Below, piece by piece: positions 41,293 through 55,955 of a stretch of 64,000 bases of DNA. Under the pieces are notes generated by a model. That model was not told the origin of the DNA. It did not search any database and saw only the letters and a list, made by a program, of their open reading frames with translations. The stretch covers positions 31,100-95,099 of the forward strand of contig CAZOVY010000004.1 in NCBI GenBank assembly GCA_964583255.1, in the 5' to 3' direction. A program made the position numbers and the translations under genes. The stretch is from an uncultured Brevifollis sp. Lineage in GTDB: Bacteria; Verrucomicrobiota; Verrucomicrobiia; Verrucomicrobiales; Verrucomicrobiaceae. Each line of letters starts with the position of its first letter. Position 1 is the first letter of the stretch.

Positions 41293-43896
41293 TCACTTAG
41301 CCCCGTGCTTGTCCTTCAGATGCAGCACCGTCTCATCGGCGGTGTCTGCTTGAATCATGACCAAATCACCCGGCTTGGCAGAGGCTAAGGCAAGATCGAC
41401 GGCTTTGAGATGGCCTTGGATACACTCGATGCGTTTGGTTCTAGGCGCAGACTCAAAGCCCGTGGCGATGAGGCGCATGATCTCACCCGACTCACGACCG
41501 CGCACGTAGTCGCCTTCAAAGAGCCAAGCTTCGTCAAACTCCGCAGCGAGCATCCGGCCCTGCTCAATGATGTCGGAATCGCGGCGATCACCTGCGGAGG
41601 TGTAAACAACGATGCGGTGCTGATTGGTGAATGCGCGCAGGCCGTCGAGCAAGGCTCGGAGTGCATCGACATTGTGCCCATAATCGACGATGACGGTGAC
41701 GCCATTGAGATCGAGCACGTTAAAGCGCCCAGCATTTTGATCCATGCTGGGGATGAATGTGCGCGCGCCTTGACGAATGAGATCGTCATTAATTTCGAGT
41801 GCCCAGGCGGCTGCGACGGCGGCGAGTGTGTTCTCAATCTGGAAGCCGATGAGGCCGCCGAGCGTGAGTGGGATTTCACTCAATGGCATGAAGACATCCT
41901 CTTTCGGTCCCGTGGCACGAATGATCTGACCGCTGCGAATGAAGATGACGCGCTCACCTTGAAAGCGATGCCGAGTGATGACGGCGTTGTCCTCATCAAG
42001 CGCGAAGAAGATCGTTTTGCGCGGATAGGTCTCAGCCATTTTTACCACGAGCGGATCAGCCGCATTGAGCACCGCAGTTCCTGTAGCCGAGACGGCCGCG
42101 ACGATGCACTGCTTGACCTCGGCAAGCTGCTCGGCCGTGTCGATCTCGTTGATGCCGAGATGATCTCCTGCGCCGATGTTCGTGACGACAGCGACGTCGC
42201 AGTGATCAAAGGCCAACCCCTCGCGTAAAATGCCACCGCGCGCCGTCTCAAGAACGGCGGCGTCACACAGCGGAAATGAAAGGATGCTGCGCGCGCTTTT
42301 CGGCCCGCTGCAATCTCCGCTGTCGATCATGCGTGAGCCGACGAAAACACCATCGGTACTTGTCAATCCCACACGCCAGCCGTTTTGAGTCAGCAGATGC
42401 GCGATGAATCGCGTCGTGGTCGTTTTGCCATTTACGCCAGTCACAGCCACGATGGGAATGCGGCCATTGCAATCGGCTGCAAACATCGTGTCGATCACCG
42501 CTTTACCGACGGGCCGCGCTTCGCCCTCGGAAGGATACAAATGCATGCGCAGACCAGGGCGTGCATTCAGCTCAATGATGACGCCATTACGCGGACTGAG
42601 CGGCGCGCTGATGTCCGGTGCGATCATATCGATGCCACAAATATCGAGTCCTACCGTCTGCGCAGCCTCCACCGCAGCCGCACAAATCGTGGGGTGAACT
42701 TCCGCCGTGCAATCAACCGCTGTGCCGCCAGTGCTGAGATTTGCGTTACGGCGGATGAGGATCATGCGGCCTTTTTCAGGCACCGAATCTGGCGTGCAAT
42801 CTTGCTCAGTCAGCACAGCCGCGGCCACGGCATCAATGCGAATTTTGCTCAGTGCCGCCGCGTGATCTGAAGCACGACGTGGGTCACGGTTCTTCTCGGC
42901 AATGAGCTCTTGAATGCTGTGTTCACCATCACCAATGACATGTGCGGGATGACGCCGAGAAGCGGCAATGAGTTCGCGCCCGATCACCAGCACGCGGTAA
43001 TCATCACCTTCAGCGAACTGCTCCACGAGCACTGAGTCACTTTCGGCAAATGCAGCCTCGTAAGCCGTGGTGATCTGCTCGCGGGTGTACAGATTCAGTG
43101 CCACGCCACGTCCCTGATTCCCATCCAGAGGCTTCACCACGACGGGCAGACCTATCTCATTGGCCGCAGCCCAGGCATCATCAGCCGACTTCACTGGACG
43201 GCCCTGCGGCACTGGCAAACCGACTTCATTCAGCAGTCGTCGCGTCAGATCTTTGTCTTGGACGATGTCCTCAGAGATCGCGCTCGTCTGGCTGGTGGCT
43301 GCTGCGAGAATTTTCTTTTGCTTCACGCCCCAGCCCAGTTGCACCAAGCTACCTGACGTGAGTCGGCGCACGGGAATACCGCGCAACTTCGCCGCATCCA
43401 CCATCGCCCGTGTGCTGGGTCCGAGGCAGACTTCATTCGCCAGATCACTCAATTCAAGAATCGCTGCATTCACATCCAAGACCTGCCCCCACAGCGCCGC
43501 ATCGATGATTAGTCGTGCGAGTTGGAAGGCCGCACGCGCCACCGCCTCTTCGTCAAATTGCGTGATGATTCGAAGCACGTGCGGCTCAGATGTTGGCACC
43601 ACTTTGCCAAAGGTGACCTGCAAATCTGTGCGACTCTGTAGATGCAGAGTGATGAGCTGAAGCAGGCTCGCGAGCGTCTGCGTGTCGGGTTCATGCAATT
43701 CACGCACTGGCACTTCGAGCGCCGGCAGCCAAGACACGAGCCAGTCCTTCCAGTTAGGCACGACGCCACTCAGCGGCGGAAATCCGACTCGACACTCCAA
43801 GACCGTATCACGCCCCCACAGATTCGGCCCGCGCAGAGCGTGGATTTTGCGAGCAAGGGTGGAGCGAATTTCGCTGGATGGAATAGTAGAAGACAA
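41293..43896 (-). CDS. cphA: Cyanophycin synthetase, full-length copy with intact ATP-grasp and Mur-ligase domains
   Basis: LRGPNLW, LGPST, KPLDGNQGRGV, NANLSTGG, ELNARPGLRMH, TGVNGKTT, ETARGG, DHLG, GRFN and DYGHN. TTG start. Confidence 0.95.
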   Translation of the reverse strand: MSSTIPSSEIRSTLARKIHALRGPNLWGRDTVLECRVGFPPLSGVVPNWKDWLVSWLPALEVPVRELHEPDTQTLASLLQLITLHLQSRTDLQVTFGKVVPTSEPHVLRIITQFDEEAVARAAFQLARLIIDAALWGQVLDVNAAILELSDLANEVCLGPSTRAMVDAAKLRGIPVRRLTSGSLVQLGWGVKQKKILAAATSQTSAISEDIVQDKDLTRRLLNEVGLPVPQGRPVKSADDAWAAANEIGLPVVVKPLDGNQGRGVALNLYTREQITTAYEAAFAESDSVLVEQFAEGDDYRVLVIGRELIAASRRHPAHVIGDGEHSIQELIAEKNRDPRRASDHAAALSKIRIDAVAAAVLTEQDCTPDSVPEKGRMILIRRNANLSTGGTAVDCTAEVHPTICAAAVEAAQTVGLDICGIDMIAPDISAPLSPRNGVIIELNARPGLRMHLYPSEGEARPVGKAVIDTMFAADCNGRIPIVAVTGVNGKTTTTRFIAHLLTQNGWRVGLTSTDGVFVGSRMIDSGDCSGPKSARSILSFPLCDAAVLETARGGILREGLAFDHCDVAVVTNIGAGDHLGINEIDTAEQLAEVKQCIVAAVSATGTAVLNAADPLVVKMAETYPRKTIFFALDEDNAVITRHRFQGERVIFIRSGQIIRATGPKEDVFMPLSEIPLTLGGLIGFQIENTLAAVAAAWALEINDDLIRQGARTFIPSMDQNAGRFNVLDLNGVTVIVDYGHNVDALRALLDGLRAFTNQHRIVVYTSAGDRRDSDIIEQGRMLAAEFDEAWLFEGDYVRGRESGEIMRLIATGFESAPRTKRIECIQGHLKAVDLALASAKPGDLVMIQADTADETVLHLKDKHGAK

Positions 43897-43989
43897 GCGG
43901 AGGTAAGCCCGATTCGGAGATGCCTGCGGCGAGAAGCAGGGTCAAGGTAAGAATACACTTGGAACGAAACGCCGCATTACGTCTTACAC

Positions 43990-46245
43990 TTGAAATCAAC
44001 ACAGGCCGTCAGATTGACAAGAACCGCAACCACGGGACTGTCCGCCGTCGATTTCGACCCTGCTTTGCCCACTCCAATCACCAGCCAAACTCACGAGACT
44101 CTGCTCCAGCATGCCGAAAAGCAACTGGTCGCTGGTGAACGAGTCATAGCCAGGTTGTTGATCGATCTGGACGCCAGTTTGCATTTCCATGGCGGACTCA
44201 TCGTGCTCACGAACACTCGCCTGCTGCATGTCGAAGTTGCGCACTTTCACGCTTGGAAGCTAGCTGATTTACAAGATCTGAAGTTGGAAGAGATGGGCGC
44301 CACGGCGGCCATCCACTTGATGCAGTCAGAGTCCAGCGTGTGGCATTGGCGGATCACTTCCGGCCATCTGCGCGAGGTGGAGGCTTTTGTAGCAAGGTTT
44401 AAAGAACAGCGCGGCACGGCAAATTCTGACAGTGACGCTACTGAGGACGATGAAGATGTATTTTCCGCTGAAGAACCCATGGCTGAAACCTTCACGGGAC
44501 TGCCACTGCTCCGGCTCTTTAAATTTTCCAGCAAGTGGTACAAGCTTATGCTGCTTGGGTTCGTTCTGACCGTTGCCAGTACAGGCTCCGGGTTGGTCGG
44601 CCCGTGGCTCACGATGTCACTCGTTGATGACGTGCTCATCCCGCTACAAACCGCTACGAGCGACGTGCTTGTCGAGCGTGTGTATCATTTCATGCTGATG
44701 CTGGCAGGAGCAGCGCTGCTGACCTGGGTACTGCAGTGGGCGACAACTTATGTCATCTCGCGCGTGGCGGAGCGCGTGACCAGCCACATGCGGCGAGCAA
44801 CATTTGAGCATCTGCAAAAACTCTCGCTGACTTATTTTAACAAAAAGCGCACCGGGGATCTGATCTCACGCATCGGCTCGGACACGGACAATATCTCGCT
44901 CTTCATCTCGGTCGATTTCATCGACTTCGCCTGTGATCTGCTGACGATTCTTTTTACCGCAGTGATTCTGTTCTCGCTCAATCCAATGCTCGCCCTAGCA
45001 GCGATCGGGCCGCTGCCGATTGTGGCCTGGCTGGTGCAGTGGGTGCGCAGCCACCTGCGCGGTGGCTTTGCTGCAGCGAGCCGTGCGTGGAGTGCGATGA
45101 ACAGCGTGCTCTCTGACACGATCCCTGGCGTGCGGGTCGTCAAAGCCTTCGCGCAAGAGCAGCGTGAGATCGAACGCTTCCGTGAGCAGGATCAGCAAAT
45201 CTTTGACACCAATGACCGTGTGAACCGTACATGGTCCTTCTTTGAACCGACGATCAGTTTGCTGACGGACATCGGTCTGCTCATCGTCTGGAGTGTCGGC
45301 GCATGGAGCGTCGCGGGCGGAAACACCACCGTCGGTGTGCTGACAGGCTTCGTTCTCTACGTGGGCAGATTCTACGGCAAGCTGGACAACATGAGCCGCT
45401 TCCTCGCTTCTGCACAACGGGCGGCGACCAGCGCGCATCGCATCTTCGACATCCTTGATGTGAAGCCCGACATGCCGATCACTTCAGGTATGCGCAAGGT
45501 TGGTCGTTTGAGCGGTGAGATCGAGTTTCGCGGCATCAAATTCCGCCACGGCTCACGTCAGATCATTCGCGGTATCGACCTGAAAATCGCGCCCGGTGAA
45601 ATGATCGGCCTCGTCGGACCGAGTGGTGCTGGAAAGACAACGTTAGTTAATCTCGCCTGCCGTTTCTTCGATGTCAGTGAGGGCGCCGTGTTGGTCGATG
45701 GACACGACCTGCGCGAGATCGATGTCGTCGATTACCGGCGTAATCTCGGCCTGGTTTTGCAGGAGCCGTATTTGTTCTTTGGCACCATCGCTGAAAACAT
45801 CGCGTATGGGAAGCCAGACGCGACACGCGCTGAAATCATCGCCGCTGCTAAGGCGGCTCGTGCGCATGATTTCATCCTGAAACTCACAGACTCTTATGAC
45901 TCGATGGTCGGCGAGCGTGGGCAGCAGCTTTCCGGCGGAGAGCGTCAGCGCATCAGCATCGCACGCGCCTTGATCGTCGATCCGGCGATCTTGATTCTCG
46001 ATGAAGCCACCTCATCTGTGGACACCGAAACCGAGCGCGAGATCCAGGCCGCACTCGATCATCTCGTCAAAGGCCGCACCACCATCGCCATCGCGCATCG
46101 TCTCGGCACTTTGCGAAAAGCGAACCGGCTCGTGGTCGTGGAAAACGGAATCATCAGTGAAATCGGCACGCATGAAGATCTCATGAACCGCAGCGGCACT
46201 TATGCACGGCTGCATCAGGCCATGGTTGAGGTGAACGCAGCATGA
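43990..46245 (+). CDS. ABC transporter (TMD+NBD) with N-terminal extra domain, cyanophycin-associated type
   Basis: GPSGAGKTT, LSGGERQR, ILDEAT and a multi-TM domain. Coupled to the DUF1854 gene and adjacent to cphA. Confidence 0.92.
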   Translation: MKSTQAVRLTRTATTGLSAVDFDPALPTPITSQTHETLLQHAEKQLVAGERVIARLLIDLDASLHFHGGLIVLTNTRLLHVEVAHFHAWKLADLQDLKLEEMGATAAIHLMQSESSVWHWRITSGHLREVEAFVARFKEQRGTANSDSDATEDDEDVFSAEEPMAETFTGLPLLRLFKFSSKWYKLMLLGFVLTVASTGSGLVGPWLTMSLVDDVLIPLQTATSDVLVERVYHFMLMLAGAALLTWVLQWATTYVISRVAERVTSHMRRATFEHLQKLSLTYFNKKRTGDLISRIGSDTDNISLFISVDFIDFACDLLTILFTAVILFSLNPMLALAAIGPLPIVAWLVQWVRSHLRGGFAAASRAWSAMNSVLSDTIPGVRVVKAFAQEQREIERFREQDQQIFDTNDRVNRTWSFFEPTISLLTDIGLLIVWSVGAWSVAGGNTTVGVLTGFVLYVGRFYGKLDNMSRFLASAQRAATSAHRIFDILDVKPDMPITSGMRKVGRLSGEIEFRGIKFRHGSRQIIRGIDLKIAPGEMIGLVGPSGAGKTTLVNLACRFFDVSEGAVLVDGHDLREIDVVDYRRNLGLVLQEPYLFFGTIAENIAYGKPDATRAEIIAAAKAARAHDFILKLTDSYDSMVGERGQQLSGGERQRISIARALIVDPAILILDEATSSVDTETEREIQAALDHLVKGRTTIAIAHRLGTLRKANRLVVVENGIISEIGTHEDLMNRSGTYARLHQAMVEVNAA

Positions 46246-46664
46246 TCGACCTCATCTCCATCCTCCAGCAGCCTGATGTGCTCCCCGTGCGACTCTTTCC
46301 TCTCACAGATCCGGCGCACTGGGTCGCCATACTGGATGCGAAAGGGCATGAGATCGCCTGCATCGAAGATCCGACCACGCTCGATGCTCCTCAACGCGCC
46401 GCGCTCGATGCGGCGCTTGCCAAGCGTCATTTCGTGCCGGTCATCCGCCGTATCGTGGCGATCACACGAGCTCCAGATGGCCACGACTGGCTCGTCGAAA
46501 CCGACCGCGGCACCACGACCTTTCGCATCGAGACGGACGAGAGCATCCAGAGTCTCGGTGGCGGTCGTCTTGTAATCATCGACAAACTGGGCACGCGCTA
46601 TCTCGTGCCAAAGATGACCGACTTAGATCGCGAGAGCCGGCGCAAACTCGAACGCTACTACTGA
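46242..46664 (+). CDS. DUF1854 family protein
   Basis: PVRLFPLTDP, FVP.I.RI, W.VETDRG and D..G.RY motifs. ATGA overlap with the ABC gene. Confidence 0.88.
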   Translation: MIDLISILQQPDVLPVRLFPLTDPAHWVAILDAKGHEIACIEDPTTLDAPQRAALDAALAKRHFVPVIRRIVAITRAPDGHDWLVETDRGTTTFRIETDESIQSLGGGRLVIIDKLGTRYLVPKMTDLDRESRRKLERYY

Positions 46665-46671
46665 CCCATCT

Positions 46672-48726
46672 ATGAACCTCGTCTTCTGTTTGGTTAGCCT
46701 TCTCGGCGCCTTCCTGCTGTTTCAAGTTCAGCCCGTCATCAGCAAATTCATCCTGCCATGGTTCGGCGGAAGTCCCGGCGTGTGGACGACGTGCATGCTG
46801 TTTTTCCAAGTCGTGTTATTTGGTGGTTACAGCTACGCGCACTTGCTCGCGAAATGTCGGCCACGCACGCAGGCTTGGGTGCACGGTGCAGCGCTGCTGA
46901 TCGCAGCCCTGCTGCTACCCATCGTGCCAGATGCGGCGCTGAAACCCACCGGAGCTGAAGAACCAGTCCTGCGTATTTTGATGCTGCTCGCGTGGACCGT
47001 CGGCTTTCCCTACCTCGTCCTATCTGCCACCAGCCCGCTGCTTCAAGTGTGGTTTTCACATTTGTATCCGCAGCGCAGCCCATGGCGCTTGTATTCACTA
47101 TCGAATATCGGCTCACTCACCGCGCTGCTGACTTATCCCGTATTGATCGAGACACGGTGGGATGTGATGACGCAGGCGCAGATATGGTCCGGCGTTTTCG
47201 TCGTGTTTGTGCTGCTCATGGCTGTCTGCGCCTTCACCAATCGCACGCGCCCAGATGTGATCACGCCGGAGGGTGATCCACATCCGCAGGCGGAAACACA
47301 TGCAATCAAACCTACTTGGATGCGCCGCGTGCTGTGGCTGCTGCTGCCAGGTTTTGCCTCACTGCTCCTGCTGAGTACCACCAATCATGTTTGTCAGGAT
47401 GTCGCGGTGATTCCATTTTTATGGGTCGCGCCTCTCAGTCTGTATCTCGTCTCATTCATCATCTGCTTTGATCATCCGCGCTGGTATGCACGCAGCGCGT
47501 GGGCACTGCCGGCGATGGCGCTGCTGTTCTTTGGCTCCGGCATGTACCAGTTTGATTTTGGAGACTGGTCACCTGGCTTCATCTTTGAGCTCTGCGTGCT
47601 CCTGGCGGCCATGTTTGCCGTATGCATGGTCTGTCATGGCGAACTCGCCCGCTTGAAGCCCTCTACGAAGTATCTCACCGAGTATTACTTGCTCATGTCT
47701 GCGGGCGGCGCGCTCGGAGGTCTGATCGTGAGCATCGTCGCACCGCTCATGTTTGATACCTACATGGAGTGGTCGTTGGCACTGCTCGCTGGGTTTATGT
47801 TGGTTGCCTGGGCAGCCTTTGCGGGGCTGCCAGCCTTCCTGCGGATCAAACCGGCGGCTATCGGTTGGGCGGCACTGACGCTGACTGGAGTGGTTTATAT
47901 GAGCGAGTGGGAGTTCTCTTTTGAGGAGAGACTCGAGCGGCATCGTGACTTCTACGGCATGCTCTCGGTCAACGAATACGAGGACGACGACAATGGCGAA
48001 ACCCTGCGCTCTTTCATCAGCGGCACCATCAAGCATGGCCGCCAAAACATGACGCCTGCGAAACTGCGTGATCCGCTGACCTACTACTCGCGGCCCACAG
48101 GAATCGGTCGCGCGCTCGAATCACTGAAGACCATCCCGGACGCCAAAGTGGGCGTGATCGGCATGGGGGCAGGCACCGTGGCCTGCTACGCGGAAAGAGG
48201 GCAGACATACCGCTTTTATGAGATCAATCCCAGTGCCGTGCGCCTGGCCTTAAAGTATTTCACCTTCATCCCTGATCTGGAGGCACGCGGTGCCCATTAC
48301 GAAGCCCACCTGGGCGATGCGCGCCTCACTTTGGAGCACGAAGCGCCGCAAAACTTCGATGTGCTGCTCATCGACGCCTTCAGTGGTGACTCCGTCCCCG
48401 TGCACCTCCTCACGCGCGAGGCCTTTGAACTGTATCAGCGGCACATGAAACCCGATGGCATCATCGCCGTGCACATCACGAACCATTCACTCAATCTGGC
48501 CCCCGTCGTCGAGCGCGCCGCGCGTGAGTTCGGTCTGCACAGCATCCGCATCGCCAACAAAACCGAGGAATCCGGCTGCTACCCCACCGATTACGTGCTG
48601 CTGACGCGCAATACCGCTTTCATCCAGGCGAATCCGCCCGTGGAGCCTGCCTATGCGCGTGCGATCGACGTGCCTTTGTGGACCGATCACCGCCACAATC
48701 TGTTTCAGATTTTGGACAATCGCTAA
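46672..48726 (+). CDS. Membrane protein fused to a spermidine-synthase-like SAM-dependent domain
   Basis: Multi-TM N-terminal region (LLFQVQP...K.ILPWFGG), then IGMGAGT, YEINP, GDAR, DAFSGD and WTD. Confidence 0.88.
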   Translation: MNLVFCLVSLLGAFLLFQVQPVISKFILPWFGGSPGVWTTCMLFFQVVLFGGYSYAHLLAKCRPRTQAWVHGAALLIAALLLPIVPDAALKPTGAEEPVLRILMLLAWTVGFPYLVLSATSPLLQVWFSHLYPQRSPWRLYSLSNIGSLTALLTYPVLIETRWDVMTQAQIWSGVFVVFVLLMAVCAFTNRTRPDVITPEGDPHPQAETHAIKPTWMRRVLWLLLPGFASLLLLSTTNHVCQDVAVIPFLWVAPLSLYLVSFIICFDHPRWYARSAWALPAMALLFFGSGMYQFDFGDWSPGFIFELCVLLAAMFAVCMVCHGELARLKPSTKYLTEYYLLMSAGGALGGLIVSIVAPLMFDTYMEWSLALLAGFMLVAWAAFAGLPAFLRIKPAAIGWAALTLTGVVYMSEWEFSFEERLERHRDFYGMLSVNEYEDDDNGETLRSFISGTIKHGRQNMTPAKLRDPLTYYSRPTGIGRALESLKTIPDAKVGVIGMGAGTVACYAERGQTYRFYEINPSAVRLALKYFTFIPDLEARGAHYEAHLGDARLTLEHEAPQNFDVLLIDAFSGDSVPVHLLTREAFELYQRHMKPDGIIAVHITNHSLNLAPVVERAAREFGLHSIRIANKTEESGCYPTDYVLLTRNTAFIQANPPVEPAYARAIDVPLWTDHRHNLFQILDNR

Positions 48727-48774
48727 CCACATGCAGCGCCGGAAGACGTGTGATTCGGAGCACCTGCTCGCACC

Positions 48775-49872
48775 ATGAGTCCAAGCCAAAACAAATCCAC
48801 AACCGAGCGGTTGCCGTTTCTGGATGCTTTGCGTGCTTTGGCATCCGTGCTGATCGTGTGGCACCACTTTGCGCTCTATCCGCCTTTGAATGAGCAGGCC
48901 GAGCCGATCCTCGGCGCACTCGTTCTTTGGTTCAGCGAGTACGCGCGGTCCACGCAGGTCTTCTTCGTGATCGGCGGCTTTGTCATGGCCCGCAGCATGT
49001 CCGGCATGAGTTGGGATGTCAGGGCAATCAGGCACTTCATCGCCAAACGCTACTGTCGTCTCGGGATTCCCTACCTCGCGGCCATTGGCCTCGCACTGGC
49101 GGCCAATGGCTTCGGTCGTGGATGGTTGCCGGATGACGTGGTCGGACCACCGCCGACGCTGGCGCAGCTCCTCGCACATGTTTTTTTCGTGCAGGAACTG
49201 ATGGGCTACGAGCACGTCTCCGCTGGCCTGTGGTTTGTCTGCATCAATTTCCAACTGGGACTGATCTACGCCATCATGCTCTGGCTGCGCGACACCCTCG
49301 CCGGCGTTTTGAAAATCCCAACCGCCTCACCGTGGATCAATGTCCCGATTTTGGCCGGTTGGATTCTGTCTCTCAGCTCCCTGTTCTACTTCAACTGTGA
49401 CTCCGACTGGGATTCGTGGGGCATCTACTTCTTCCCGTATTTCTTCATGGGAGTCGTGGTTCATCAGGCGCTGAAAAGCCGGGCTTCGGCACCCATGTTC
49501 TGGGCCTACCAGCTAATGATCATCGCCTCCATGTGTTTCGACTGGCGCTGGCGACTGATGAGCGCGCTGATCGTTGGTCTGCTGCTGTTTGGGGCGGATA
49601 AATCCGGCCTCGCCGCACGCTGGCCCCGCAGCAGGTGGATCGCTCAAATGGGAAAAGTATCTTACAGCCTCTTCCTCGTACATTTCCCCGTTCTATTGGT
49701 GATTTCCACCCTGTGGACTCGCTTTGGCTGGACCTCCGCGCCCGCCGCAGTCGTTGGCCTGCTGGTGGCCTTCGCGGCAAGCGTGGCCACGGCCTTCGTT
49801 TTCCATCGTCGGGTGGAAAAGCCGACTGCGGCGCTCAAGCGGAAAGGACGAAGGTCAGCCTCAAGCTATTGA
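48775..49872 (+). CDS. Acyltransferase-3 (OafA-like) membrane acyltransferase
   Basis: LDALRALA...V.HH, FFVIGGF, RYCRL, GKVSYSLFLVHFPV and VEKP. Confidence 0.9.
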   Translation: MSPSQNKSTTERLPFLDALRALASVLIVWHHFALYPPLNEQAEPILGALVLWFSEYARSTQVFFVIGGFVMARSMSGMSWDVRAIRHFIAKRYCRLGIPYLAAIGLALAANGFGRGWLPDDVVGPPPTLAQLLAHVFFVQELMGYEHVSAGLWFVCINFQLGLIYAIMLWLRDTLAGVLKIPTASPWINVPILAGWILSLSSLFYFNCDSDWDSWGIYFFPYFFMGVVVHQALKSRASAPMFWAYQLMIIASMCFDWRWRLMSALIVGLLLFGADKSGLAARWPRSRWIAQMGKVSYSLFLVHFPVLLVISTLWTRFGWTSAPAAVVGLLVAFAASVATAFVFHRRVEKPTAALKRKGRRSASSY

Positions 49873-50961
49873 AGCATCCAGCGCCTTGATGATCTCGCAG
49901 TGCGGTGCGCGCACGAACTTGGCCGATTCGCGCGTGGCATCCAGACTGCCGCCACCTGCATACACGTCGATGGGATCACTCAGCCGATGCATCAGCTCAT
50001 ACACGCGTGCGCAGGCCTCCTTGTCGGCCAGGGTTCGCGCCACCAACGCCTCCACCTTGGTTTCATCGACTTGCAAATCGCCTTCAGCGTCGCGGAAGGT
50101 CGAGTCACGCCAGTGGTGAATTTCGATGCACTTGGTCAGCATGGTGAAGGGCGCGTCACGCTTCCAAAAATTGGAAAACAGACCTCCTCCGAGGTAGATC
50201 ACCCAGGATCCTTCATAGCCGGTGGCTTCCTCAGAACCTTCATCCGGATTGCGAAACCAGACGCGTTCTCCCGGCACGTAATAGTGGATGGGCATTGGGC
50301 TGTTCAAGGTCCCCCGTTCGTCGAGGAAGACTTCATTGAAAGCCGTCGCTCGGAGCGCCTTCCGTTCCCACTGTGACTGCAAACGCTGCAGCAACTCTGG
50401 ATGACATTCACAGGCCTCCTCGGCGATCGAAAGCAGCACCACATACTCGACCGCTCTGGAACAGGAAAAAGAATACAATGGGCCATCTGGTTCCGGCTGG
50501 CAGGCTTTCCTCAATGATTCGATCAAGGGACTGCCTGGAATCAACACAAAGCCGGTTTCTGATGAGTAACGCCAGCAGTCCGGCGGACGCTCAACGGCCA
50601 TGGTGTCGAAATTGAGGCAGGTGCGCGCGGCATTGCGCGCGATGTTTCGGCGGATGTTCACCGAGGACTGAAGCTCCTCGGCGCTCGGAAATTCCAGCAG
50701 GAGAGGGCTGTTCAGCAGCGTCAGCCAAATCTCACGCAGCAAGTCGTCGTCATCGTTTTGACCGGCGAGTCTCAGCGTCGCGGTGAGTTCGAGCGTGTCG
50801 AAATCCGGCATCCAGGCTTGAGCATCGGTCGTCAAGGTGAGCCGAACGGAGCCATCAGCGGCTTGATCGGAAATTATGTGTATTTCGATCCCCAAGCGTT
50901 GCCACTCCGCCTGCAGGAGTGCGAAGTTCGAGTTTGTTGAGATGCGTGCCCCTAACTGCAT
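49861..50961 (-). CDS. Tgl-like protein-glutamine gamma-glutamyltransferase (cysteine transglutaminase fold)
   Basis: WR....GF.L, GPLYSFSCSRA (Cys167) and YVPGERVWFRNPD...EG.WVIYLG resemble recalled Bacillus Tgl motifs (GPFYAFECATA; GD..YFKNP...GEN.I.LG). Confidence 0.7.
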   Translation of the reverse strand: MQLGARISTNSNFALLQAEWQRLGIEIHIISDQAADGSVRLTLTTDAQAWMPDFDTLELTATLRLAGQNDDDDLLREIWLTLLNSPLLLEFPSAEELQSSVNIRRNIARNAARTCLNFDTMAVERPPDCWRYSSETGFVLIPGSPLIESLRKACQPEPDGPLYSFSCSRAVEYVVLLSIAEEACECHPELLQRLQSQWERKALRATAFNEVFLDERGTLNSPMPIHYYVPGERVWFRNPDEGSEEATGYEGSWVIYLGGGLFSNFWKRDAPFTMLTKCIEIHHWRDSTFRDAEGDLQVDETKVEALVARTLADKEACARVYELMHRLSDPIDVYAGGGSLDATRESAKFVRAPHCEIIKALDASIA

Positions 50962-51033
50962 GTGATTTCAGATGTGTTCGTGTGGTAGAAAAATATGTGG
51001 CGTTCCTTAACTCAAGGTTTCGTCCGGTGTTTC

Positions 51034-53196
51034 TTAATTCGAACCAAAACTCCTCAATCCTTCCGCGATCGCAGCGTCACTCAGTCCATAGGCCCACGCA
51101 GCACCGGCAGCGGCGAGCACGTTTTCGAGATGAAAGGCGAAATGACCGCTCAACGGTAGCGAAATGTCGCTCAGGGAACAAAGCTGGCGTGCTGTTTCGC
51201 CTTCAGCGAGATGGAGGAAATCGTCCTGCGCAAACACCGCGCGCCCACCACTCGCTCGATGTGCGTTGAGTTTGGCATTCGCGGCGTCACGGGAGAAAAA
51301 TAGGACGCTTCCTTTGCAGTGCTCGGCCATGCCGGCCACATAAACATCATCCGCATTCAGCACGACGGTGCCCCCAGGCAGCACGACATCCACGACACAG
51401 CGTTTCACTTTTGTCATCTGCTCCAGCGTGTCGATGTAGCCGAGTCCGAGGTGCTCCGTGCCTATATTGAGGACCACGCCGATCTGACAGCGGTCATAGC
51501 CGATGCCTTCGAGGACGATCGACTCCGCGCTTGTCTCGCAGATCGCGATTTCCGTCCACGGATGCAGCAGCACGCCCTGGGTGCCAAAAATACGGTCACC
51601 CTTCTTGGATTCGGCCACGCGGTCGCCAAACTGAAGTCCGTCACTGCCACAGACACCGAGAAACTTGCCCGTCGATTTCATCAAATGCGTCAGCAGCTTG
51701 ACCACGGTTGTTTTTCCATGCGAGCCCGTGATTCCGATGACCGGGATGCGGCCATCTTCAGTTTCGGGGAAAAGCATGTTGATGATCGCCTCACCGACAG
51801 GGCGACCCTTGCCCATGGCCGGCTTCAAATGGACGTTGAGCCCTGGACTCGCATTGATCTCGACGATGGCTCCGCCTTGCTCCTCCAACGGACGGCTGAC
51901 ATCGCGACACACCACGTCGATCCCGCAGATGTCGAGGCCCGCAGTCTTTGCCGCCACCACGACGTGCTCACGGATGCTCGGATGCACGTCATCCGTCACA
52001 TCCACAGATGGATTGGCAAAGCGCCATACCAGAACGCGCTCGCCATCGCGGGGAATCGACGTCATGTCGTGGCCTTGCTTCTGAAGATCCGCCATCATGG
52101 TCGGATCAATATCAGTCAAGGTGCCGATGATGGACCACGGTGTTGTATCATGCGTGCCACGGCGCGGATCACTGTTTAACTGCGCCTCGATCAAGTCGCG
52201 CACGGTCTGCGCGCCATCGCCGACGATACACGCAGGCTCACCACGATTCGCAGCGACCATTTCAGAACCCACCACTAGCAAGCGATGATCCACACCAGGA
52301 ATGAAGCGCTCAATCATGACTCCAGAGCCTTCCTTGAGCGCCTGCGGGTATGCTTCGATGATTTGTTCGCGCGTACAGAGATCAATGAATACCCCACGAC
52401 CGTGGTTGCCATCGGTAGGCTTCAACACGACTGGCAAGCCCACCTCCTCAGCAGCATTCCAGGCATCATTTGCATCGTTCACCACACGTCCTTCTGGCAC
52501 AGGAACACCTGCCTGGCGTAGTATGGTGCGCGTGAGATCCTTGTCTTGTGCGATGTGTTCCGCGATCGCCCCCGTGCAGTCAGATTCCGCCGTCCAGATG
52601 CGGCGCTGTTTCACGCCTTGACCGAACTGGATGAGACTGCGGCCCTCCTGAAGTCTGCGCCATGGGATGCCGCGCTCCTTCGCAGCATCCACGATGGATT
52701 TCGTGCTAGGCCCGAGTGCATTGCGATCCACCACACCCTGCAAACGAGTCACCTCTGCCGCGACATCAAACGTTCCGCCTGAATAAGCCGCCAGCAGCAG
52801 CTCACGCGCACTGCGCAGACATTCCTGCACCACCACCTCATCCAGATAACGAACGATGACTTTGTAGAGACCTTCCACGCACGTCTCCCGTGCTTTACCA
52901 AAGCCAAGCTGGTGACCCGCGAGCGTCTGCAACTCCAGCGTCACATGCTCCAAGATATGCGCAGGGTAAGTGCCACGATCTAACCGCTGAAAGAAGCCGC
53001 CACGCTCACCCACACTGCACCTATGCTCGATCATTCCCGGCAGCCATGACTTGAGTCGCTCATTGAATCCCGTGATCTCCTCCGACGACGCATCCTTCAG
53101 GCTGCCCAGATCCACCCAAGCTTCCAGCACAGGATAATTTGCCCAGATATTGGGACCGCGCAGAAGATGGATTTCACGAATGTCGAGATCAGGCAT
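51034..53196 (-). CDS. cphA: Cyanophycin synthetase paralogue, short copy (N-domain C/HxxEH site intact; C-terminal Mur lid domain absent)
   Basis: LRGPNIW, EHRCSVGERGGFFQRL..GTYPAHILEH, LGPST, KPTDGNHGRGV and TGSHGKTT. Ends at GLRSFGSN. Start at MPDLD. Confidence 0.92.
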   Translation of the reverse strand: MPDLDIREIHLLRGPNIWANYPVLEAWVDLGSLKDASSEEITGFNERLKSWLPGMIEHRCSVGERGGFFQRLDRGTYPAHILEHVTLELQTLAGHQLGFGKARETCVEGLYKVIVRYLDEVVVQECLRSARELLLAAYSGGTFDVAAEVTRLQGVVDRNALGPSTKSIVDAAKERGIPWRRLQEGRSLIQFGQGVKQRRIWTAESDCTGAIAEHIAQDKDLTRTILRQAGVPVPEGRVVNDANDAWNAAEEVGLPVVLKPTDGNHGRGVFIDLCTREQIIEAYPQALKEGSGVMIERFIPGVDHRLLVVGSEMVAANRGEPACIVGDGAQTVRDLIEAQLNSDPRRGTHDTTPWSIIGTLTDIDPTMMADLQKQGHDMTSIPRDGERVLVWRFANPSVDVTDDVHPSIREHVVVAAKTAGLDICGIDVVCRDVSRPLEEQGGAIVEINASPGLNVHLKPAMGKGRPVGEAIINMLFPETEDGRIPVIGITGSHGKTTVVKLLTHLMKSTGKFLGVCGSDGLQFGDRVAESKKGDRIFGTQGVLLHPWTEIAICETSAESIVLEGIGYDRCQIGVVLNIGTEHLGLGYIDTLEQMTKVKRCVVDVVLPGGTVVLNADDVYVAGMAEHCKGSVLFFSRDAANAKLNAHRASGGRAVFAQDDFLHLAEGETARQLCSLSDISLPLSGHFAFHLENVLAAAGAAWAYGLSDAAIAEGLRSFGSN

Positions 53197-54596: not shown

Positions 54597-55955
54597 ATGT
54601 CCTACCGCACCACGCCCGCCCAGCTTACCACGATGCCGCCCGGCATCCCCTACATCATCGGCAATGAGCTAGCTGAGCGCTTTAGCTTCTACGGGATGCG
54701 GACGATACTCATGATCTTCATGACTCAGGCGCTCGTGAATCATGAAGGCATGAAGGATGTGATGAGCGAGCCTGAGGCTGCGAAATGGATGCACATCTAC
54801 ATGGGTGCCGTTTATCTCACGCCACTCTTGGGCGGTCTTTTGGCCGATCTCTGGTTAGGCAAATACCGAACCATCATCTGCCTGTCACTGCTCTACTGTG
54901 TGGGGCATCTCATTCTGGCCCTGGATCAAACTCGGCAGGGACTGTTTCTGGGGCTTTCCTGCGTCGCTCTCGGCGCGGGCGGCATCAAGCCCTGCGTGGC
55001 CTCCCATGTCGGAGATCAGTTTGGTGCCAGCAATTCGCACCTGCTGCCGCGCATGTACAACTGGTTCTACTTTGCGATCAATTTTGGCTCTTTCTTCTCC
55101 ACCCTGCTAACTCCGTGGTTGATGAAACATTATGGCCCACATGTCGCCTTTGGCGTGCCTGGGATTTTCATGCTCGTCGCCACCATTCTGTTTTGGATGG
55201 GTCGGCATAAATTTGCTCATATCCCCCCGCAGCCACAGGTCTTCTGGCAGGAGCTTAACCGACCGGATGTGCTGCGCTCCATCGCTGGCCTGGCCATGAT
55301 TTACGCCTTCATCGCCATGTTCTGGAGTCTGTTTGATCAAACCGCCTCTAGGTGGGTCACGCAGGCCACTCACATGGATTTGAATGTCTTCGGTGTGCAG
55401 GTCCTGCCAGATCAGATCCAGGCCGTGAATCCCCTTTTCGTGCTGGCCATGATTCCCTTCTTTTCGCTGGTCGTTTATCCTCTCGTTGGCAAGATCTTCA
55501 CGCTCACGCCACTGCGGAAAATCTGCGCGGGCTTCGGCGTCGCCGCCGTTTCGTTCATCATTCCAGGCTTGATTGAAACCTGGATCGCGGCAGGCGAAAC
55601 GCCCAGCATCTGGTGGCAGATCTTGGCCTATCTCTTGATCACTTCAGCGGAGATCATGGTTTCCATCACCGCGCTTGAGTTCAGCTACACGCAGGCTCCT
55701 GCGCGGCTAAAGTCCTTCATCATGGGCCTCTTCTACGCCAGTGTGTTTCTTGGCAATCTCTTCACCTCACTGGTCAATGCATCGATCGAAAAAGCCGGGC
55801 TTTCGAGCGCACTGAATGGCTCGGCCTACTACTGGTTCTTCGTGCAGTGCATGGCTGTTACAACCGTGCTGTTTGTCTTCGTCGCCATGTTTTATAAAGG
55901 CCGGACCTACCTTCAGGGGGATGACGCCGAGCCGTGCACGCCTGAGATTCATTGA
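54597..55955 (+). CDS. POT/PTR family proton-dependent oligopeptide transporter
   Basis: ELAERFSFYGMR (ExxERFxYY-like), GGIKP..GDQF, FYFAINFGS and EFSYTQAP. Confidence 0.93.
   Translation: MSYRTTPAQLTTMPPGIPYIIGNELAERFSFYGMRTILMIFMTQALVNHEGMKDVMSEPEAAKWMHIYMGAVYLTPLLGGLLADLWLGKYRTIICLSLLYCVGHLILALDQTRQGLFLGLSCVALGAGGIKPCVASHVGDQFGASNSHLLPRMYNWFYFAINFGSFFSTLLTPWLMKHYGPHVAFGVPGIFMLVATILFWMGRHKFAHIPPQPQVFWQELNRPDVLRSIAGLAMIYAFIAMFWSLFDQTASRWVTQATHMDLNVFGVQVLPDQIQAVNPLFVLAMIPFFSLVVYPLVGKIFTLTPLRKICAGFGVAAVSFIIPGLIETWIAAGETPSIWWQILAYLLITSAEIMVSITALEFSYTQAPARLKSFIMGLFYASVFLGNLFTSLVNASIEKAGLSSALNGSAYYWFFVQCMAVTTVLFVFVAMFYKGRTYLQGDDAEPCTPEIH

Follow-up and report, generated by a model that had tools for sequence, protein, structure and literature searches.

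A catalogued cyanophycin synthetase and ABC exporter module in a verrucomicrobial genome, with acyltransferase and transglutaminase-like genes that recur beside it in unrelated lineages

The closest described relatives of the locus considered here are four-gene modules of Betaproteobacteria, in which two cyanophycin synthetase genes, a long cphA and a short cphA', accompany an ATP-binding cassette (ABC) exporter gene and a DUF1854 gene. In Acidovorax sp. 3H11 as well as Cupriavidus basilensis, mutants in the DUF1854 gene, the ABC gene and both synthetase genes show cofitness, and Price et al. already proposed an exported envelope polymer for the module, regarding the CphA/CphA' product as not cyanophycin and possibly exported (bioRxiv 10.1101/072470; what is drawn from this preprint, and from the papers cited below other than PMC9974463, rests on passages of them). 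According to a 2023 paper, no process of cyanophycin export was known (PMC9974463), and a further description pairs the two copies of cphA with nothing more than an ABC gene (PMC10687191). We analysed a locus of this kind in a 64,000-nucleotide (nt) stretch of the genome of an uncultured Brevifollis sp. (Verrucomicrobiota; assembly GCA_964583255.1, contig CAZOVY010000004.1, positions 31,100 to 95,099), called the window hereafter. By its named close homologues the host is Prosthecobacter-like. Besides the core genes the locus holds genes for an acyltransferase of the AT3 family, a transglutaminase-like (Tgl-like) Cys enzyme and a membrane protein with an S-adenosylmethionine (SAM) domain. The first two are found clustered with the core again in lineages that are unrelated, more than chance would give. 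The locus puts names to two enzyme families repeatedly associated with the module, and it gives a first context for the approximately 1,500 uncharacterised proteins of the Tgl-like family.

The core of the locus is itself a catalogued module and not new. It unites long and short cphA paralogues, an ABC gene of family NF052233 and a DUF1854 gene (recognised by Pfam, NF052234 remaining under its cut-off), and NCBIfam names both the NF052233 and NF052234 families as cyanophycin-associated. The four genes, the long/short split and the lack of a cyanophycinase are all common to the window locus and the Acidovorax sp. 3H11/Cupriavidus module, the window CphA, CphA' and ABC proteins are 47-52% identical to their betaproteobacterial counterparts, and the cph-linked exporters form a group of their own on the ABC tree, separate from other DUF1854-linked ABC proteins. 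Unlike the Acidovorax/Cupriavidus module, the window locus has cphA' at its far end and a slot with the acyltransferase, Tgl-like and SAM-domain genes, which are absent from the module description in the passage of Price et al. considered here. The module probably produces a short chain of amino acids resembling cyanophycin and exports it. Export rather than storage, as suggested in an earlier note made from the letters of the window alone, fits the evidence, although the idea is not new, having been published from cofitness. Across 105 Prosthecobacter-like genomes (the genus census), DUF1854 occurs in 46, and 45 of these have a cph-type locus. DUF1854 alone is no marker of the module, since cphA, Tgl and the acyltransferases were all lacking from the 33 DUF1854/ABC loci of 30 further genomes of Verrucomicrobiota. 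ABC and DUF1854 genes without cphA are found in those genomes (L154-L186) and also in two Prosthecobacter genomes (L120, L133).

Within the genus, an acyltransferase occupies the slot behind DUF1854 in 37 of the 44 resolved loci, as three different proteins. Among all 45 loci (that of G033 pieced together from two contigs), the slot holds a NagX/HGSNAT-like gene in 34, only an AT3 gene in three, the window included, and a cyanophycinase-like S51 gene in four; it is empty in three and falls on a contig end in one. Every carrier of the NagX-like subclade (34/105 genomes) or of the AT3 subfamily (9/105) has the module, and one and the same slot is taken by members of two AT3 subclades or by the NagX-like protein. 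The exchange is seen against two relatives (G096 and G015): their DNA and that of the window agree as far as the SAM-domain gene's end and once more from the end of the Tgl gene onwards, the AT3 gene being swapped one for one with a NagX-like gene. BLAST gives no alignment of the two proteins; AT3 and NagX/HGSNAT nevertheless belong to one fold superfamily, TmAT, whose members acylate extracytosolic acceptors (PMC12423673, PMC9007349). The window AT3 has the motifs DxxRx10H (D17/R20/H31), FxxxxG (F63/G68) and RxxR (R92/R95) in common with the TmAT proteins (OafA/OatA-type AT3, HGSNAT/NagX/DUF5009), and differs from them in lacking an SGNH domain and in carrying SxxxF (S296/F300, invariant across the aligned set) for the SxxxY motif of transmembrane helix 9. 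The slot protein of the relatives matches NagX at E 1e-28, with a NagX score of 100 against a cut-off of 480. We consider it likely, from gene context, that the membrane acyltransferase acts on the module product. A remnant of AT3 is seen in the slot of one further locus (L139, G115).

The Tgl-like gene is present in 29 of the 105 genus genomes, 28 of which carry the module, and stands directly behind cphA' in 27 of these 28; the only DUF1854-negative genome with Tgl (1/59) has a fragment, in an assembly of 1,230 contigs. The predicted structure of the window protein (pLDDT 93.3) has confident matches only to the spore-coat Tgl of Bacillus subtilis (4P8I; Foldseek E 4e-8) and Geobacillus (7C9J; 8e-7), with which it shares the fold and the Cys/Glu dyad: Cys167/Glu250, equivalent to Cys116/Glu187 of Tgl (PMC6490927), are found in all 120 listed homologues. 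It is only 14-15% identical to these enzymes and about 110 amino acids (aa) longer, with an extra N-terminal region of about 65 aa, it scores far under the spore-coat equivalog NF002869 (26.1 vs 307), and its hosts are Gram-negative and non-sporulating, unlike Bacillus and Geobacillus. The earlier note saw the enzyme as a possible cross-linker; cross-linking outside the cell is doubtful, because a crude hydropathy test gave a signal-like stretch in 0/120 Tgl-like homologues. From gene context, the Tgl-like enzyme likely acts on the module product. In 401 sampled Verrucomicrobiota genomes the gene was found once, in the window's own, the named homologues outside the genus are from Betaproteobacteria, a single-sequence scan of species genomes gave only two loci, both verrucomicrobial, and plasmids gave no match. 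No longer, fused Tgl forms were found, which is weak evidence, the best full-length matches being mostly of 350-430 aa. Decay is visible at two loci, Tgl being split into two frames in L124 (G072) and reduced to a remnant in L119 (G066).

Outside the genus, a metagenome scan gave at least 586 confirmed Tgl matches, and the best 80 of them were followed up, 75 being at loci that are not Prosthecobacter-like; core presence was judged in the surrounding stretch. Among these 75, core genes stand beside Tgl at nine, AT3 lies within 1.5 kb at 26, and both are seen at four. The core-linked loci belong to Thiobacillus, to Alcaligenaceae-type bacteria (Parapusillimonas and Paralcaligenes clusters) and to one further Pseudomonadota clade; their gene orders differ and, with Prosthecobacter, they occupy four places on the Tgl tree. 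In three of them (L050, L067, L073) cphA', cphA, ABC, AT3 and Tgl come together in another order, and L050 and L067 also show DUF1854. Taking a genome of some 4,000 genes with a single core locus, we infer that adjacency by chance would have a likelihood of about one in a thousand per lineage, which argues that the three further core-linked lineages are not coincidental. One candidate (L053) was dropped from the core-linked set, which went from ten to nine: its match is a partial one of a generic ABC gene, 38% over its length. A search of the literature, covering neither subscription papers nor bioRxiv supplements, found no account of a link between the module and genes of the Tgl-like or TmAT kind. 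In a Curvibacter-type clade (L045, L063, L075, L092, L095, L101, L103 and kin), Tgl, accompanied or not by AT3, is on the opposite strand and flanked by tlpA and a Tat-type Transglut_core gene.

The synthetases complement each other, with the ligase motifs in CphA and the zinc chain-cutting motif in CphA'. Both share the N-G-M architecture of solved CphA1 enzymes (Synechocystis 7LG5, Trichodesmium 7WAC, Acinetobacter 7LGM, Tatumella 7LGN; E 1e-178 to 1e-117); in the window, unlike in CphA1, two genes divide the three active-site motifs between them and there is no cphB. Residue roles (PMC9262961, PMC9427784) were mapped by alignment to solved CphA1. The long CphA has lost the N-domain peptidase motif Cx19HxxEH, which is also absent in primer-dependent CphA1 (PMC9262961); its G domain retains R301/R315/N386/S388/R450 (equivalent to R309/R323/N394/S396/R458), and the M domain (K499, D585-H586) and Mlid motifs are intact, consistent with a likely polymerase. 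The short CphA' has the peptidase motif intact (C60, H80, E83, H84) and retains His265/Arg305 (equivalent to His267/Arg309) and the metal ligands in its G domain, and it lacks the Asp-binding set (R323G, R458N, no LSTGG large loop) and Mlid; it is likely the chain-cutting, primer-making partner, to go by these motifs. The pattern holds in the Prosthecobacter-like copies, 41 of them long and 43 short, and in seven long and seven short Pseudomonadota copies, counts that comprise related sequences and some duplicates: the peptidase motif is found in 39/39 Prosthecobacter-like and 7/7 Pseudomonadota short copies covering that region, LSTGG and R458 in 40/40 Prosthecobacter-like and 8/8 other long copies. 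In two genomes of another verrucomicrobial family (G053, L035:3915-6575; G057, L036:2869-5529), a single cphA, divergent from the ABC gene, combines the peptidase motif with long-type G and M motifs and Gln at position 267, and DUF1854 is seen in G053; this is possibly an unsplit form of the module and would fit the split of one ancestral enzyme. The Asp pocket of the CphA' G site is altered alike in both phyla (R323G, R458 mostly hydrophobic, loop deletion) while His267, Arg309 and the metal ligands are kept; the site may ligate another amine rather than being dead. The position of Glu215, which CphA1 needs for primer recognition, is Asp in Prosthecobacter long copies and Ala or Ser in betaproteobacterial ones (window 41293-43896; L050, L102, L111, L153), a change that may bear on why the product of the pair differs from cyanophycin.

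We favour, at roughly an even chance, a reading in which the known module is joined by two optional accessories that act on its product, the acyltransferase and the Tgl-like enzyme, and by one passenger gene. Gene content, motifs and recurrence are observed, and from them we infer each chemical step. CphA would use its G and M sites to join amino acids and the zinc N site of CphA' would cut the chains into primers and export-sized oligomers, activities to which the observed motifs point. In keeping with the published cofitness, the ABC/DUF1854 pair would move the oligomer out of the cytoplasm. At the outer face of the inner membrane, the acyltransferase would pass an acyl group from cytoplasmic acyl-CoA to the product, with acetylation of a free amino group as the likeliest outcome. 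The Tgl-like enzyme would act in the cytoplasm, its observed dyad attacking a side-chain amide, in all likelihood the beta-Asp isopeptide, by way of a Cys thioester, and transferring it to a different amine or else to water. As for the SAM-domain gene, it would have come in once and have no role in the pathway. If the link of the accessories to the module holds, Betaproteobacteria and Prosthecobacter would share an envelope-polymer pathway that could offer tools for modifying cyanophycin; if it fails, the locus is an ordinary copy of the catalogued module. An extended version of the proposal seems unlikely to us, namely that the module secretes, as a complete pathway, an envelope polymer of amino acids that has been tailored. 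In it the CphA' G site, altered yet with its phosphate-activation residues conserved, would join a non-aspartate amine, the Gram-negative Tgl subfamily would swap beta-aspartyl side chains or attach the chain to a carrier, and transmembrane acyltransferases, interchangeable with one another, would cap the chain in the periplasm. If true, it would be the first modified, exported polymer of the cyanophycin type and provide the first case of a Tgl with a non-ribosomal substrate.

A number of observations weigh against the accessory reading. The identity of the polymer is uncertain because the C. necator pair makes no cyanophycin, according to work cited by Price et al. (bioRxiv 10.1101/072470), and the long CphA has Gln261 at the position of catalytic His267, as do 41/41 Prosthecobacter-like and 8/8 other long copies, against His in all five solved CphA1 sequences. 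In the Tgl-like protein, Glu115 of Tgl is replaced by Ser166 in 120/120 homologues, the E115A variant of Tgl is reported to be inactive, and the spore-coat enzyme acts on Gln (PMC6490927). The slot proteins are optional, as the three empty loci and the four with a lipoprotein cyanophycinase-like gene indicate, and Tgl is missing from 13 closed module loci, of which one keeps a remnant, and could not be called in four, with about six losses on the ABC tree. The Prosthecobacter counts reflect one inherited cassette and are not independent cases. Elsewhere, 66 of the 75 non-Prosthecobacter Tgl loci have no core gene nearby (26/29 where at least 3 kb is available on both sides), 40 sampled neighbours of core-less Tgl genes share no common family, the Thiobacillus and Alcaligenaceae-type loci have Tgl beside the core without an acyltransferase, the Curvibacter-type clade has Tgl and AT3 far from any core gene, and the single Ralstonia locus examined has the core alone. 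One alternative is that Tgl and the acyltransferase form a separate mobile module that modifies the envelope or proteins (by O-acetylation of a surface glycan or Gln-Lys cross-linking of proteins, for example), and that it travelled with the cph core into Prosthecobacter with no chemical link to the polymer. AT3 is near Tgl more often than the core is, most Tgl genes have unrelated neighbours, loss within the genus is repeated, and sugars are the acceptors named for characterised TmAT enzymes (PMC12423673, PMC9007349). A separate module would nevertheless have to account for the four places on the Tgl tree at which Tgl adjoins the core in different orders, for three recruitments of an acyltransferase into the same operon slot and for the confinement of both subfamilies to module carriers in the genus, and we hold it to be somewhat unlikely.

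Another alternative starts from the cyanophycinase, of which the earlier note saw none in the window. In the whole genome (93.5% complete), too, no S51 cyanophycinase, no member of the IaaA family and no IadA over cut-off was found (CphZ was not searched for), and no cyanophycinase over cut-off was found in the 45 module genomes. The Tgl-like protein, with its papain-like Cys fold and many invariant Arg, Glu and Asp residues, could then be the lacking recycling enzyme, a cytoplasmic isopeptidase hydrolysing cyanophycin or beta-Asp-Arg, and the polymer mainly a nitrogen store. We judge this quite improbable: that no Tgl is seen at the four loci holding an S51 gene amounts to a single event on the ABC tree, nine closed module loci have neither an intact Tgl nor an S51 gene, CphA' already has an endopeptidase motif, and the exporter and the acyltransferase would be left unexplained. 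The four S51 genes, which score below the TIGR02069 cut-off, belong to one clade, have a lipoprotein-type leader and lie directly behind DUF1854 in place of the acyltransferase and Tgl (L027:10618-11751, L136, L143, L006, of genomes G025, G104, G123 and G030). In favour of the accessory reading, such a gene in the slot of four relatives points to a cyanophycin-like substrate outside the cytoplasm, a hint that the product is cut there. Outside the slot, cphA was near a cyanophycinase-like gene at none of eight loci; a ninth stretch, from G081, yielded no match. Very improbable, in turn, is that all three extras tailor the polymer, the SAM-domain protein included, by methylation or aminopropylation, acylation and cross-linking, as the earlier note had suggested. 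The SAM-domain gene does lie 7 nt behind DUF1854, and all 11 genomes with its subclade have the module and Tgl, which leaves a small chance of a real link; yet its family is found in 98 of the 105 genomes, near none of the 75 non-Prosthecobacter Tgl loci (nor is a NagX-like gene), and in the slot at only 7/45 module loci, six of which could be placed on the tree as one clade. Two of the seven slot copies are broken, one by an internal deletion and one by a frameshift, and the sister copies are in unrelated places in four cases and beside cphA' in one, which counts as a second, separate placement (G069, L231:3565-5616, immediately upstream of cphA' and sharing its strand). Since the gene is limited to one clade, partly broken and absent near other Tgl loci, methylation or aminopropylation is unsupported, and the protein is far under the SpeE equivalog cut-offs (17.9-34.9 bits vs 249-304); its best PDB sequence match is 3GJY (E 2e-5), and a single-sequence structure model reached a pLDDT of 42 only. 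Clustering of this gene with the core may be no more than chance would give, and it is likely a clade-limited insertion, a passenger. Homologues near cphA elsewhere were thus found for the acyltransferase and Tgl-like genes, in two phyla, and for the SAM-domain gene in one Prosthecobacter clade only, so that the interpretation offered in the earlier note stands in part.

The seven genes, their families and spacing, including the Tgl-like gene behind the short cphA', were read correctly in that note, as open reading frames and profile scores confirm (Table 1). Successive intergenic distances are 93, -4, 7, 48, -12 and 72 nt: the long cphA and the ABC gene are divergent, an ATGA overlap joins the ABC and DUF1854 genes, the AT3 and Tgl genes overlap tail to tail, and Tgl lies behind cphA' on the same strand. 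The two cphA genes share a strand at opposite ends of the locus and are not tandem. The locus has no Rfam match.

Table 1. Genes of the locus, in window positions. Reading frames and gaps were taken from the sequence; families were assigned by profile search against score cut-offs, given as bits (cut-off).
Feature	Position	Strand	Length, profile score and remarks
Long cphA	41293-43896	-	867 aa; TIGR02068 944.6 (850)
ABC exporter gene	43990-46245	+	NF052233 977.7 (880); cyanophycin-metabolism-associated; N-terminal soluble extension
DUF1854 gene	46242-46664	+	PF08909 138.8 (26.8); NF052234 132.7, below its 150
SAM-domain gene (fused major facilitator superfamily/spermidine-synthase-like membrane protein)	46672-48726	+	NF037959 56.4 (40)
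AT3 gene (stand-alone, TmAT superfamily)	48775-49872	+	PF01757 73.5 (31)
Tgl-like Cys enzyme gene	49861-50961	-	366 aa; PF20085 89.3 (23.7)
Short cphA'	51034-53196	-	720 aa from ATG; TIGR02068 763.5, below 850

A POT-family peptide transporter gene lies two genes beyond cphA' (54597-55955); it adjoins the locus otherwise only in the nearest relative, G015, and is probably unrelated to it. Compared with the same relative (L021), Tgl and CphA' (window 49861-53196) are 72% and 82% identical and the flanking proteins 93-99%, which suggests recombination of the Tgl and cphA' block, since it is far more diverged than its surroundings.

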